NCBI GenBank assembly: GCA_937894465.1
Contig: CALCRE010000060.1
Location: forward strand, 1 to 48,823
Source of the DNA: an uncultured Clostridia bacterium
GTDB taxonomy: Bacteria; Bacillota; Clostridia; JAAYHZ01
Length of the DNA: 48,823 nt
Reading direction: 5' to 3'
The translations under genes were made by a program, and so were the position numbers. Below are positions 16,206 to 20,613 of the stretch, piece by piece (positions within the stretch are counted from its first letter, which is position 1; each line of letters starts with the position of its first letter). The notes under the pieces are model-generated. The model was not told where the DNA came from. It saw only the letters and a list, made by a program, of their open reading frames with translations, and did no database searches.

Positions 16206-17531
16206 TTATGGTTCTAGTCTTTCGGTATCTCTCGGGAATAAGGTTGCCTGCCGGACATTCGGCAAGTCAAGTAATCTTGCAGTGAATCGTTCCAAGCCCA
16301 ACCCTAATCCCCCATGGGGCGGTAGACCATATTGATGAGCCATCAAATAACTTTTAAAAAGATCGACATTCATGCCTCTGTTTTTCATTTTCTCCACTTG
16401 TTCATCGTAATCATGAATCCTTTGTCCACCGGTGGTAATCTCCAGCCCTCTGAACAAAAGGTCAAAGCTTTCCGTCACATTCGAATTACCGGGTGTTTCC
16501 ATTGCATAAAAAGGTCTTTTAGATGACTTATACCGGGTTACAAAAACAAACTCACTACCGGTTTCTTTTTTAATAAGATCACACAGTAATTTTTCTTCCT
16601 CGGGTTCAAAGTCTTCCATGTCGGTACTGACTCGCTTGTATGTTTTCTCAAGCATACATTTTGCATCTTCAAAATCCACGGCAGGAATCTGATTCACCGT
16701 AGGTATTTTAACCTTGAGCAAATTAAGTTCATATGCATAATGAGCCTGTAGAAAATCCAAAGTCTCAATAAGCATTTTTGTTTCATATGTCATAATTTCC
16801 GTATAGTTCTCAATGAAACCTACTTCAAAGTCCACACTTGTATATTCATTAATATGTCTTGCGGTATGATGCTTCTCTGCTCTGAAAACCGGGGCTATTT
16901 CAAAAACCCTTTCAAAGACGCCCACCATCATTTGTTTGTAAAATTGAGGACTTTGAGCAAGATAAGCTTCCTTACCAAAATAGTCCAGCTTGAAAATATT
17001 GGCACCGCCTTCTGCCCCTGAATATACAATTTTAGGTGTATGGATTTCAGTAAAATTGTTTTCCCCAAAAAACTTTCTAAAGCCGCTACACAAACCTTCT
17101 TGTATTTTGAAAATAGCTCGTTCCCTTTCATTTCTCAATGTAATAGGGCGGTATTGAAGCAATATGTCCAATGATACACCCACTTGCCGGTTGTTAATAA
17201 CAATCGGTGTTTGTTCCACCGGTGCGGAGAGTTTTTTGATACTCTTCATACGAAGTTCACAACCGGTAGAACTCCGCTCTTCCGATATCACAACTGCTGT
17301 CAGCAATACACTCATATTGCACACAAGGTCAGAAAGAGGAAATAAAGAAAATTCTTCACTCCAAACACACTGAACCATATGCCTCTTCGTTTGTAACAAC
17401 ACAAAAGCAAAACCGCTCATTTCCCTAATCTTATAAATCACTCCTTGTAGGGATACCTCTTTACCGATAAAATCAATAAAATGTTCAGCTTCAACCCGAT
17501 TGTTTTCTATATTACCATTTATATAAATCAT
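16206..17531 (-). CDS. class IIb aminoacyl-tRNA synthetase, archaeal-type AspRS (AspRS2)/AsnRS-like
   Basis: N-terminal OB-fold region, motif 2 FRAEKHHTARHINEYTSVDFEVGF, and a C-terminus GGLGLGLERFTARLLDLPNVRQATLFPRDTERLEP typical of type-2 AspRS/AsnRS. 441 aa. Confidence 0.75.
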   Translation of the reverse strand: MIYINGNIENNRVEAEHFIDFIGKEVSLQGVIYKIREMSGFAFVLLQTKRHMVQCVWSEEFSLFPLSDLVCNMSVLLTAVVISEERSSTGCELRMKSIKKLSAPVEQTPIVINNRQVGVSLDILLQYRPITLRNERERAIFKIQEGLCSGFRKFFGENNFTEIHTPKIVYSGAEGGANIFKLDYFGKEAYLAQSPQFYKQMMVGVFERVFEIAPVFRAEKHHTARHINEYTSVDFEVGFIENYTEIMTYETKMLIETLDFLQAHYAYELNLLKVKIPTVNQIPAVDFEDAKCMLEKTYKRVSTDMEDFEPEEEKLLCDLIKKETGSEFVFVTRYKSSKRPFYAMETPGNSNVTESFDLLFRGLEITTGGQRIHDYDEQVEKMKNRGMNVDLFKSYLMAHQYGLPPHGGLGLGLERFTARLLDLPNVRQATLFPRDTERLEP

Positions 17532-17873
17532 AAAATTATAATCCTCCTAATCTAGATTCTTTGACAAAAATTGTATTTCCAAAATCTTTAAAGAGGAGGT
17601 CTGTCCCGGCATCATCTATATGCCGCATTATCATCACATCCTTTTATAAATAAAAAAGTCACATAGATATTAAAACCTATGCGACATGATTGTTCAAGTA
17701 ATACATGGAATCAGCAGAAGAAAAGGCGCACAGGCATGTGTAATCAAAGCACTTGTACCTGTGACAACTTTGTCAAGGACAAGTGCTAACGATCATCATC
17801 TGTTCTTTTATAACAGTACCTGTTCATCTAAAAAATCCCATCATTTAAAATATTAATTTAGCGGTATTATATA
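17532..17873 (-). promoter_or_regulatory. 342-nt structured 5' leader of the aaRS gene with an internal intrinsic terminator and a 32-codon uORF; not a canonical T-box
   Basis: Possible promoter TTGCGC-17-TATAAT at the upstream end. Nested hairpins (AGCACTTGT...ACAAGTGCT enclosing TGACAA-agt-TTGTCA). Terminator GTCGCATAGG-loop-CTATGTGAC plus TTTTTTATTT about 140 nt before the ATG. uORF MIMRHIDDAGTDLLFKDFGNTIFVKESRLGGL ends 5 nt before the aaRS ATG. Confidence 0.5.
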
Positions 17874-18236
17874 CTATTTCGAAAATTGGCGCAACTGTAC
17901 GGAAACTCCGTTCGGATCGTAAACATAAAAGTATCGAGTTCCGTCTTTAGGGTCTTGTACAGGAGAAGGATTCAATCCTTTATCAGTGACAAGCTGATGC
18001 ATTTCATCTAATTTGTTCGTCTCAAAGCAGATGAACCACCCTTTTCCTTCAAATTTTTGTCCTTGCGGCATGTATATAAGTTCAATTTCGGTTTCTCCTT
18101 CACCATGTGCCAAGAATGCAATTTCCCATTGATCTCCTTTTTCACGACGCTTCACTGATAACTCCGTTACACACTCATAGAATTTTATCGATTCATCAAT
18201 ATTGTTGACCTTTATAGCCAAGTGTTTAATATGCAT
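17874..18236 (-). CDS. VOC/glyoxalase-bleomycin resistance family protein
   Basis: 120 aa, glyoxalase-like fold, family assignment from overall similarity (MHIKHLAIKVNNIDESIKFY...). Confidence 0.75.
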   Translation of the reverse strand: MHIKHLAIKVNNIDESIKFYECVTELSVKRREKGDQWEIAFLAHGEGETEIELIYMPQGQKFEGKGWFICFETNKLDEMHQLVTDKGLNPSPVQDPKDGTRYFYVYDPNGVSVQLRQFSK

Positions 18237-19461: not shown

Positions 19462-20613
19462 TCATTCCGCCGCTTTAAAGTTATAGATCGGTTTAATCAG
19501 ATCTGTGACCTCGGCAGTATCCGTTATATTCTTGATAATTTCTTCTACCGGCTTATATGCCAAGGGGCATTCATCCAATGTGTCCTTATTGACACAAGTG
19601 GTATAAATCCCTTCCATGGTTTTCTTATATTGAGAAAGAGTCAACTCAGACTTTGCTTGGGTTCTACTCATCAGTCGACCTGCACCGTGAGGTGCCGAAT
19701 AGTTCCACTCCGGATTTCCCTTCCCAACACAAACCAAACTACCGTCACGCATATTGATAGGTATGAGAAATCTTTCTCCCTTTTGTGCTGAGACTGCACC
19801 TTTTCTCAAAATCATATTTTCGGTATCAATGTAGTTGTGGATGGTTGAAAAACTGTCCGCAACCTTTAATTTCATTCCTTTTACAATTTCATTCATCATG
19901 GCTTTTCTATTTAACAAAGCAAACCGTTGAATGATTTTCATATCGTGAAGGTAGTCATGGAATAAATCAGCGGATACATATGCCAATGATTTAGGAATTT
20001 GTTTGATTCTTTCATCTGTGGACTTCTTCAAAATTTCATACCCTTGCTTTTGGTAATGATTGGCCGTCTCAAGACCTAAATGTCTACTTCCACTGTGAAT
20101 GACCACATAGATGCGGTCATCACGGTCTTTATTGACCTCGATGAAATGATTTCCTCCACCTAATGTGCCTATACTCAGAATAGCCCTGGACAAATTTACA
20201 TTTGACTTACAATTTAATTGATTCAAATCAATTTCTTCATTATATGGATGTGCTTTATTCCTAACGGCAAAACCGGAAGGAATTTTAGAATGAATCAGCT
20301 TATCCAATTTTTCCAGTTCCAAATGCCGGCTCTCCACCCGGATCACTTCCATACCGCAACCGATGTCCACACCCACTAGATTAGGTACAATTTTGTCAGT
20401 AACCGTCATGGTTGTTCCTATGGTGCACCCTGCTCCGCTGTGCACATCTGGCATAATCCTGATCTTGTTGCCTTTGACGAATTCCTGATCACATAATGTT
20501 TGGATCTGAGAAACAGCACCTTCTTCCACAAAATCGGTATACACAACCGCTCGATTGTATTTGCCGACAACTTCAATCATATCTAATGAACCTTTCTTTT
20601 CTTTATTCTTCAC
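19462..20613 (-). CDS. rtcB: RtcB family RNA 3'-phosphate ligase (short form)
   Basis: MPDVHSGAGC, GVDIGCGM, GGGNHFIEV, HSGSRHLG and SAPHGAGR match RtcB catalytic motifs. 383 aa. Confidence 0.85.
   Translation of the reverse strand: MKNKEKKGSLDMIEVVGKYNRAVVYTDFVEEGAVSQIQTLCDQEFVKGNKIRIMPDVHSGAGCTIGTTMTVTDKIVPNLVGVDIGCGMEVIRVESRHLELEKLDKLIHSKIPSGFAVRNKAHPYNEEIDLNQLNCKSNVNLSRAILSIGTLGGGNHFIEVNKDRDDRIYVVIHSGSRHLGLETANHYQKQGYEILKKSTDERIKQIPKSLAYVSADLFHDYLHDMKIIQRFALLNRKAMMNEIVKGMKLKVADSFSTIHNYIDTENMILRKGAVSAQKGERFLIPINMRDGSLVCVGKGNPEWNYSAPHGAGRLMSRTQAKSELTLSQYKKTMEGIYTTCVNKDTLDECPLAYKPVEEIIKNITDTAEVTDLIKPIYNFKAAE

Follow-up and report, generated by a model that had tools for sequence, protein, structure and literature searches.

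Leader-peptide attenuators control the trp, his, leu, thr, ilv and pheA operons of Escherichia coli and Salmonella, and the pheST attenuator, with its PheM leader peptide, places an aminoacyl-tRNA synthetase gene under the same type of control. In Firmicutes, synthetase genes are textbook targets of the T-box. We know of no attenuator that responds to aspartate, and of no case in which a pair of leader peptides specific for one amino acid is arranged in series, each acting at a different level. Here we analyse the leader of aspS, an aspartyl-tRNA synthetase (AspRS) gene located in a 48,823-nt stretch of DNA, termed the window, from an uncultured Clostridia bacterium (contig CALCRE010000060.1 of assembly GCA_937894465.1). 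Comparison of this leader with those of its relatives suggests that it is probably a ribosome-mediated leader-peptide attenuator, most likely reading the charging of tRNA-Asp, while a second Asp-containing upstream open reading frame (uORF) would, with less certainty, gate the aspS ribosome-binding site (RBS).

The aspS leader resembles the classical attenuators in possessing a short open reading frame (ORF) led by a Shine-Dalgarno (SD) sequence and carrying a run of cognate codons, overlapping helices and an intrinsic terminator, with the position of the ribosome predicted to decide the outcome. In contrast with these systems, it would read aspartate, it is located in Clostridia (Lachnospiraceae), where T-boxes rule, and it bears a second Asp-containing uORF after the terminator. 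In addition, the classical attenuators comprise four RNA segments while the aspS leader comprises five, such that a stalled ribosome must spare the first helix and the state without a ribosome is predicted to be read-through. The closest functional precedent is pheST, where a synthetase gene is under leader-peptide attenuation. The mgtCBR leader of Salmonella also contains two short ORFs, each steering RNA conformation; however, its tandem uORFs mgtM and mgtP read ATP and Pro-tRNA and both act on transcription, whereas Asp codons are present in both aspS uORFs, one of which is predicted to act on transcription and the other on translation. T-box leaders (RF00230) respond to uncharged cognate tRNA with increased synthetase expression, by way of an antiterminator and a terminator, and regulate orthologues of this gene in other Clostridia. 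The T-box senses tRNA directly, whereas the aspS leader would sense it through the translating ribosome and displays no Stem I, specifier, T-box sequence or covariance-model match.

Three further systems bear on the comparison. The Corynebacterium ilvB uORF attenuator (ilvB-II motif), first taken for a riboswitch, shares with the aspS leader a conserved uORF rich in cognate codons, an antiterminator and a terminator, discovery by comparative genomics and a Gram-positive host (PMC10272879, PMC11109978), but involves other amino acids, another gene and another taxon, and has a single uORF and no translational tier. In erm/cat leaders (ermC, ermB), a ribosome stalled in the leader ORF opens a hairpin that hides the downstream SD (PMC8274638 for ermB), which is the action proposed here for the second aspS uORF. 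The erm/cat stall depends on an antibiotic and the nascent peptide, whereas the trigger proposed for aspS is a shortage of charged tRNA-Asp, and, unlike in erm/cat, the second aspS uORF peptide is not conserved outside the Asp codons independently of RNA pairing. The trpB motif (RF04312), an orphan riboswitch candidate of Firmicutes and Fusobacteria for which its authors left a classical attenuator possible, likewise presents a hairpin whose 3′ shoulder serves as antiterminator, followed by an intrinsic terminator (PMC11109978); it differs in gene association, and the window scores below its gathering threshold.

Organization of the aspS leader

The 441-residue aspS product matches Pfam tRNA-synt_2 (E 1.6e-76) and passes the NCBIfam equivalog NF003483, aspartate--tRNA(Asn) ligase (526.3 bits; cut-off 353), while its TIGR00458 score of 365.1 falls just below the cut-off of 368.4. 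These matches suggest an archaeal-type, non-discriminating AspRS that is predicted to charge tRNA(Asn). The upstream gene encodes a 120-residue glyoxalase-family protein, and as its stop codon occupies positions 17876-17874, the intergenic leader extends from 17873 to 17532 (342 nt). The original prediction for this locus, an archaeal-type AspRS gene preceded by a 342-nt leader with nested inverted repeats and an intrinsic terminator, agrees with the present analysis on each of these points. The repeats AGCACTTGT (17787-17779) and ACAAGTGCT (17756-17748) flank TGACA/TGTCA and belong to segments 1 and 2 of the five-segment RNA described below, while the terminator arms GTCGCATAGG (17685-17676) and CTATGTGAC (17666-17658) are followed by T6AT3. 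A terminator scan of the region returned three terminator-like sites against 1.9 expected, so that the site alone is not significant; the terminator helix is considered real because it is conserved in orthologues. Coordinates of all features are presented in Table 1.

Table 1. Features of the aspS locus in window coordinates. SD, Shine-Dalgarno sequence.
Feature	Positions	Strand	Description
Candidate promoter	17866..17894	minus	-35 TTGCGC 17894-17889, 17-nt spacer, -10 TATAAT 17871-17866; predicted
uORF1	17786..17839	minus	Weak SD GGGA 17839-17836; ATG 17827; 13 codons MNRYCYKRTDDDR; stop TAG 17788-17786
Segment 1	17771..17787	minus	AGCACUUGUCCUUGACA; starts 4 nt past the last Asp codon, overlaps the uORF1 stop, pairs with segment 2
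Segment 2	17748..17767	minus	UUGUCACAGGUACAAGUGCU; pairs with segment 1, or with segment 3 via CACAGGUA
Segment 3	17727..17736	minus	UGCCUGUGCG; partner of segment 2 or, in the antiterminator (CCUGUGCG / CGCAUAGG), of the terminator 5′ arm
Intrinsic terminator (segments 4 and 5)	17648..17685	minus	GUCGCAUAGG-UUUUAAUAU-CUAUGUGAC, then U6AU3
uORF2	17536..17644	minus	Extended SD AAAGGAUGUGAUG 17644-17632; ATG 17628; MRHIDDAGTDLLFKDFGNTIFVKESRLGGL; stop TAA 17538-17536
Hairpin in uORF2 codons 2-8	17607..17625	minus	CGGCAU 17625-17620 / AUGCCG 17612-17607; 7-nt loop contains the D5 codon
uORF2 Asp codons	D5 17616-17614; D6 17613-17611; D10 17601-17599	minus	
Anti-SD	17594..17599	minus	CCUCCU; overlaps the D10 codon and uORF2 codons 11-12
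aspS SD	17543..17548	minus	AGGAGG; paired with the anti-SD in minimum free energy and centroid folds of the window
aspS	16206..17531	minus	441-residue ORF; archaeal-type non-discriminating aspartyl-tRNA synthetase, class II

Relatives were obtained from a scan of one genome per species, which yielded 80 loci with AspRS orthologues 53-67% identical, mostly from Lachnospiraceae and Clostridia close to them, among which are Lachnoclostridium phytofermentans, Lacrimispora, Kineothrix, Anaerocolumna, Fusicatenibacter and Eisenbergiella. Carriers available in culture include L. phytofermentans, Lacrimispora xylanisolvens DSM 3808, Kineothrix alysoides and Fusicatenibacter saccharivorans. The counts given below refer to 81 orthologous leaders, to 64 leaders with a block encoding D-D-D, or to the 45 leaders of the alignment used for helix counts (A1). 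The blocks of the leader are conserved in ~65 of the 81. An alignment of 31 leaders revealed a shared order in which a sigma-70-type promoter precedes an SD with a short ORF ending in ...L-N-R-D-D-D; next come a long hairpin and a further hairpin region, then the intrinsic terminator, another SD with its own short ORF and, finally, the aspS SD. In the window, the region 17645-17830 folds with a z-score of -5.05 relative to shuffled sequences.

A predicted Asp-codon leader peptide upstream of the terminator

The first short ORF, termed uORF1, ends in GAT GAT GAT CGT TAG (D-D-D-R-stop), with the Asp codons at 17800-17792, all upstream of the terminator. A D-D-D block followed by segment 1 is present in 64/81 leaders, and in 62 of these 64 an SD and an ATG are located 27-60 nt upstream, in frame with D-D-D and with no intervening stop codon, an arrangement that is found in 0/64 for the other two frames. 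The N-terminus of the uORF1 peptides varies freely while the C-terminal (L-N-R-)D-D-D is conserved, and the stop codon mostly lies 0-4 codons (maximum 9) past D-D-D, within or beside segment 1. The Asp run is encoded as GAY-GAY-GAY in nearly all relatives. Codons 1 and 3 of the run specify Asp in every related leader examined, the middle codon being Asn or Ala in L011, L013, L041 and L001. In the related leaders the third Asp codon is separated from the first base of segment 1 by 4 nt, almost without exception. The attenuation model described below would explain why this spacing is fixed.

Most relatives display AAU AGG (Asn-Arg) ahead of the Asp run (A1 columns 1-6), Asn being present in 52/62 uORF1 peptides, while the equivalent pair in the window (17806-17801) encodes Arg-Thr. 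This conservation may mean that Asn-tRNA(Asn) is also sensed, the enzyme being non-discriminating, or it may reflect a slowing of translation by AGG, a rare codon. The conserved Asn-Arg, which is not explained by a pure Asp-codon sensor, would also fit a peptide ...L-N-R-D-D-D that acts through its nascent chain, either by destabilizing the ribosome with its acidic run or as a ligand-dependent arrest peptide. It is established that ribosomes are destabilized by acidic runs close to the N-terminus of a short nascent chain, an effect proposed for MgtL and Mg2+ sensing. However, the regulated gene charges tRNA-Asp and, among the matches listed in the metagenome scan described below, the element is located essentially only before aspS; the invariance of the two outer Asp codons and the fixed distance to segment 1, which fits stalling with the first Asp codons in the A site, also make action through the nascent chain unlikely.

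Inspection by eye revealed a small, apparently covarying hairpin within uORF1, a few nucleotides before the Asp codons (CAACTT/AAGTTG, CAGTTT/AAGCTG and CAACAATT/AATTGTTG), exemplified by TCAACTTGCAAAGTTGA in L004 and with candidates in the window at 17824-17812 or 17816-17800. It could be a polymerase pause hairpin that synchronizes ribosome and polymerase. In the minimum free energy (MFE) fold of the window, UGAUCG, from the second and third Asp and the Arg codons (17797-17789), pairs with UGAUUA (17746-17741), lengthening by six pairs the helix formed by segments 1 and 2. This extension was not seen in the consensus. As these codons are themselves paired in the window, a ribosome positioned on them would already weaken that helix.

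Four mutually exclusive helices

Helix pairing was counted on the 45 leaders of A1, and the same count with the 3′ partner slid by 1-3 columns served as control. Helix 1:2, formed by the nested repeats, has 92% of cells paired and eight pairs changed on both sides. The corresponding values are 97.6% and four for helix 2:3, which competes with both 1:2 and 3:4, 87% and six for helix 3:4, the antiterminator formed by segment 3 and the terminator 5′ arm, and 89% and seven for helix 4:5, the terminator. Covariation across orthologous leaders, named as a check in the original prediction, is observed in all four helices, where pairing amounts to 87-98% and each helix has 4-8 pairs with changes on both sides; the slid-partner controls reached 21-59%. 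The four helices are unable to all coexist. The window itself departs from the consensus in a compensatory manner, both in helix 1:2 (AGCACUUGU/ACAAGUGCU versus AGCGCUUGU/ACAAGCGCU) and in helix 3:4 (CCUGUGCG/CGCAUAGG versus CCUAUGUGG/CCACAUUGG).

To model the effect of ribosome position, the nascent RNA was folded as far as the 5′ arm of the terminator while bases up to 14 nt past the first P-site base were barred from pairing, which represents a thermodynamic model of a kinetic process. With the first Asp codon in the A site, helix 1:2 was predicted in 43/45 leaders and 3:4 in 40/45, whereas 2:3 was predicted in 0/45. A ribosome whose A site holds the stop codon gave 1:2 in 0/45, 3:4 in 11/45 and 2:3 in 35/45. 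In the window, helix 3:4 has 8/9 pairs under a stall at the first Asp codon and 0/9 with the ribosome at the stop. The upstream tier, comprising uORF1 and the five segments, presents every feature of a classical leader-peptide attenuator that can be examined in sequence.

The arms AGCGCUUGU / ACAAGCGCU of helix 1:2 are conserved in sequence beyond pairing and form a palindrome as DNA, which would suit a trans-acting protein, either AspRS recognizing a tRNA-like feature or another RNA-binding protein, that sets the terminator by binding the 1:2 hairpin or the DNA palindrome, with the uORFs as accessories. There is precedent in E. coli ThrRS, which binds its own mRNA. Such a mechanism is very unlikely here, as compensatory changes preserve all four mutually exclusive helices, an Asp-codon uORF that is frame-specific and held at a fixed distance would be left unexplained, and the ribosome-mask folding yields the full switch with no extra factor. 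The repeats AGCACTTGT/ACAAGTGCT were retained as a DNA operator at low probability only, because their arms join two competing, covarying RNA helices. A different role for the terminator, as the mere end of the glyoxalase gene with an aspS promoter located downstream, was rejected, since terminator, antiterminator and uORF1 spacing are co-conserved before aspS despite differing upstream genes.

A further conserved element resembling ACCCAUACGAG, termed segment 6, is located 3′ of the terminator U-tract in L023, L029-L031, L035-L037, L040, L042-L046 and L050-L053 (A1 columns ~213-265) and is absent from the window. It is complementary to the terminator 3′ arm (CUCGUGUGGU) and could keep the read-through RNA in a non-terminator fold or alter access to the SD of the second uORF.

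A second Asp-containing uORF at the aspS ribosome-binding site

The original prediction had placed a uORF between the terminator and aspS, overlapping the aspS RBS. The frame and the overlap were confirmed for this ORF, termed uORF2, which crosses the aspS SD AGGAGG (17548-17543), but its stop codon lies 4 nt rather than 5 nt before the aspS ATG, and of the possible starts (GTG 17637, ATG 17634 and ATG 17628) homology favours 17628 (30 codons, MRHIDDAGTD...) over the proposed 17634. The same prediction suggested attenuation plus translational coupling or occlusion, possibly Asp-sensitive in view of the early Asp codons of this uORF. A terminator-based attenuator, control at the RBS and Asp codons as the likely sensor are all retained here; however, uORF2 lies downstream of the terminator and thus cannot be the attenuation sensor, governing at most the translation of read-through RNA, while uORF1, the only one of the two able to drive the choice at the terminator, had been overlooked.

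In the relatives the uORF2 block was located by iterative nhmmer and follows the terminator U-tract directly in 64/81 leaders. Of the 63 that were aligned, 53 start with ATG, 7 with GTG, 3 with TTG and none with CTG. Codon 5 specifies Asp in 63/63 (GAC 32, GAT 31), as does codon 10 (GAT 57, GAC 6). Conservation is restricted to the first ten codons, with codon 11 onward free in both sequence and length (10-41 codons). The SD region has the consensus GAAAGGUUGUGAUC at the usual spacing to the start codon, complementary at 12-13 of 14 positions to what we take to be the 3′ end of Firmicute 16S rRNA. A hairpin joining codons 2-3 with codons 6-8 has 88% of cells paired and three compensatory pairs (62 distinct sequences), and is predicted in the window fold. 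As these codons covary as RNA, their conservation in the peptide is an RNA effect. A conserved, functional uORF2 peptide was thus largely rejected, with codons 2, 7 and 8 covarying as RNA and all positions past codon 10 unconserved.

The region +13..+48 of uORF2 (codon 5 to approximately codon 16) is complementary to the aspS SD region, with a mean duplex energy of -9.0 kcal/mol versus -5.4 kcal/mol for shuffled sequences (family-wide Wilcoxon p = 3e-10, for sequences that are not independent). This anti-SD complementarity reaches p≤0.05 in 32/64 leaders, and the best anti-SD window starts at +7..+36 in 46/64. In one large clade the anti-SD is a conserved GUCCUCAUGGAU (codons 7-10) that pairs with AUCCAGGAGGA. 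Accessibility of the aspS SD, calculated as the probability that the SD core is unpaired in ribosome-mask partition-function folding, has a family mean of 0.51 with no ribosome on uORF2 (0.00 in the window), 0.38 with an initiating ribosome (0.00), 0.62 with Asp5 in the A site (0.00) and 0.64 with Asp10 in the A site (0.79 in the window). The modelled pattern fits an erm-like translational attenuation driven by slow decoding of Asp codons, although less certainly than the upstream tier fits its own model.

Plain translational coupling, with the uORF2 stop 4 nt from the aspS ATG, is a live alternative in the window. In its general form, uORF2 would be a ribosome-loading or coupling device rather than an Asp sensor, such that any translation of uORF2 melts the SD-sequestering hairpin, in the window a terminating ribosome is delivered 4 nt from the aspS ATG, and Asp is sensed by uORF1 alone. 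The very strong uORF2 SD, the position of the stop at -4 to +1 of the aspS start in the window and a few relatives, and the modest family-wide gain in modelled SD accessibility from Asp stalls are consistent with such a device. In most relatives, however, uORF2 ends 20-200 nt before aspS, in one case directly after codon 10, so that coupling is not the conserved feature. The part that is conserved, the first ten codons, has Asp invariant at positions 5 and 10 with synonymous GAC/GAT variation, and the anti-SD location described above is shared by most leaders, which leaves the coupling device possible but doubtful. A reading in which both tiers form a hungry-codon sensor was also considered, with uORF1 (N-R-D-D-D) setting read-through by reading Asn-tRNA(Asn) via AAU in addition to Asp-tRNA(Asp) via GAY, and uORF2 multiplying the response as an erm-like attenuator triggered by amino-acid limitation; this extension is put forward tentatively, as the less probable version.

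Proposed mechanism of regulation

In the attenuation model favoured here, transcription would begin just past the upstream gene and a ribosome would translate uORF1. When Asp-tRNA(Asp) is scarce, the ribosome would wait with the first or second of the three Asp codons in the A site, its leading edge halting just short of segment 1. Helix 1:2 could then form, leaving segment 3 free to pair with the terminator 5′ arm (3:4), and the polymerase would read through. With ample Asp-tRNA, the ribosome would reach the uORF1 stop codon, in or next to segment 1, and melt helix 1:2. Segment 2 would then pair with segment 3, freeing the terminator arm for helix 4:5, and transcription would end ~115 nt before aspS, at a position equivalent to ~17650 in the window. 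The second tier is less certain. Read-through RNA would carry uORF2, with its unusually long SD immediately after the U-tract, and the aspS SD would be paired with an anti-SD that falls inside the conserved ten-codon start of uORF2 or directly behind it. Stalling at the invariant Asp codons (D10 in the window) would place a ribosome over the anti-SD and free the aspS SD; termination-reinitiation coupling may also operate in the window, where uORF2 crosses the aspS SD. The predicted net effect is that low Asp-tRNA leads to more, and better-translated, aspS mRNA, which is the role played by the T-box for most Firmicute synthetase genes.

Several observations weigh against this model. Transcription start, termination, uORF translation and the aspartate response are all read from sequence, and the leaders that carry the element are related by descent, such that their counts do not represent independent events. 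Folding with no ribosome gives helices 1:2 and 3:4, and thus read-through, unlike the trp paradigm, which makes the outcome dependent on tight coupling of transcription and translation. According to the fold energies, the terminator is more stable than the antiterminator at equilibrium, and the decision must therefore be kinetic. The uORF1 SD of the window is weak (GGGA) and the consensus L-N residues are absent from its peptide. Segments 1 and 2 and the AAU-AGG codons are conserved beyond the needs of pairing or Asp sensing, and an additional factor is possible. With respect to the second tier, uORF2 was not found by iterative nhmmer in 17/81 leaders, some of which are on truncated contigs, SD accessibility changes modestly over the family as a whole, the location of the anti-SD differs among clades, and the RNA hairpin rather than the peptide accounts for half of the conserved uORF2 codons.

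In the searchable literature, whose coverage excluded the 2010 survey by Lopatovskaya et al. of attenuation in aminoacyl-tRNA biosynthesis operons, no Asp-codon leader peptide or aspS attenuator was found. As far as checked, an Asp-tRNA-sensing aspS attenuator would represent an undescribed variant of a known mechanism, widespread in gut Lachnospiraceae and absent from Rfam. If the model is correct, a whole family of bacteria, the Lachnospiraceae, together with its neighbours (many of them inhabitants of the human gut), uses a ribosome-mediated attenuator where distant orthologues keep a T-box, aspartate joins the short list of amino acids sensed by leader peptides, and aspS becomes the second example, after pheST, of a synthetase controlled in this way, in a compact natural design that stacks transcriptional and translational attenuation. 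The element has hundreds of representatives and both its uORFs are too short for routine ORF calling, making it a ready target for annotation.

Comparison with T-boxes and other Rfam families

Across the entire window, no Rfam 15 family reached its gathering score, and the T-box model (RF00230) gave no match to 17450-17950 even at E≤10. The first 20 orthologous loci likewise contained no Rfam family at gathering score. The leader gave no covariance-model support for a T-box sequence AGGGUGGUACCGCG in an antiterminator bulge, and no stem resembling Stem I, with its specifier loop and tRNA-elbow platform, is conserved among the 45 aligned leaders. As a positive control, T-boxes were identified upstream of the distant orthologues L065 (313-558) and L057 (2091-2354), with 109 and 122 bits, respectively; in the covariance alignment the specifier of the L065 T-box appears to read AAC, an Asn codon. 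Given the T-boxes of distant orthologues, the T-box and the leader-peptide attenuator seem to represent two alternative ways of controlling one gene. The L057 T-box is located 650 nt before the gene.

The original prediction had found no T-box and had left two options, an unrecognized regulatory leader or a highly divergent T-box; the searches above bear out the absence of a T-box and the first option and argue against the second. Membership in the T-boxes as a highly divergent form, or in another class of ligand-binding riboswitch such as the trpB motif, is extremely unlikely for this leader, even though the gene class and leader length are typical of T-boxes, distant orthologues carry them, and the window leader matches the trpB motif weakly at 29.8 bits, the one notable hit there. 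Apart from the negative searches, conservation extends to two uORFs that look translated but to no tRNA-binding element. The trpB match reaches half of the gathering score (59 bits) and derives from a generic hairpin and terminator, and nine consensus-type related leaders gave no match at E≤1; on these grounds, trpB-motif membership was rejected. The same searches detected a SAM riboswitch (72 bits) in L025 (246-349) and a 6S RNA (56 bits) in L077 (2571-2756), both unrelated to the aspS leader.

Association of the leader with aspS

Specificity was evaluated by scanning metagenome contigs with the DNA pattern AGGGACGACGATNNNNAGCGYTTG, which is devoid of aspS sequence, and at least 120 loci matched. 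In 106 of the 120 matches listed, an aspS homologue is located 173-623 nt downstream on the same strand, which identifies the element as essentially dedicated to aspS. Among the remaining matches listed, the sequence downstream is shorter than 450 nt in 8 and, with 512 nt in L182, stops short of the gene, while 2 are chance matches in GC-rich DNA. The other 3 (L137, L148 and L153) display a complete Fusicatenibacter-like leader (uORF1 MNEMHSVQMHRDDD, terminator and uORF2) followed by non-aspS sequence, and these contigs may be assembly chimeras or genuine rearrangements. The ORF downstream of the L137 leader is aminotransferase class V-like.

Promoter and genomic neighbourhood

The candidate aspS promoter overlaps the 3′ end of the upstream glyoxalase-family gene. 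Orthologous leaders contain a TTGACA / TGnTAnnnT promoter at the equivalent position, ~35 nt before the uORF1 SD. A consensus promoter scan did not list the candidate in the window, whose -35 element matches the consensus at 3/6 positions. An extended -10-like sequence, TGTTATAAA (17814-17806), was dropped as a promoter, as it sits within uORF1.

The genes around aspS (19462-20613 and neighbours) include those for RtcB, a glucuronyl-esterase-like protein, a GDSL lipase, a UPF0047 protein, an ADP-ribosylglycohydrolase and ABC exporters, with no obvious tie to aspartate or tRNA charging. The aspS gene looks monocistronic, and the terminator scan gave no clean intrinsic terminator 3′ of it. In this 3′ region, TCAAAGCCGG is present twice, ~20 nt apart (16156-16123), and a weak hairpin could arise from AAGCCGG (16153-16147) and CCGGCTT (16129-16123), with a T-rich stretch behind it. 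The promoter-like TTGACT-17-TATATT is located at 16100-16072, ahead of the next gene, which encodes an M24 peptidase.

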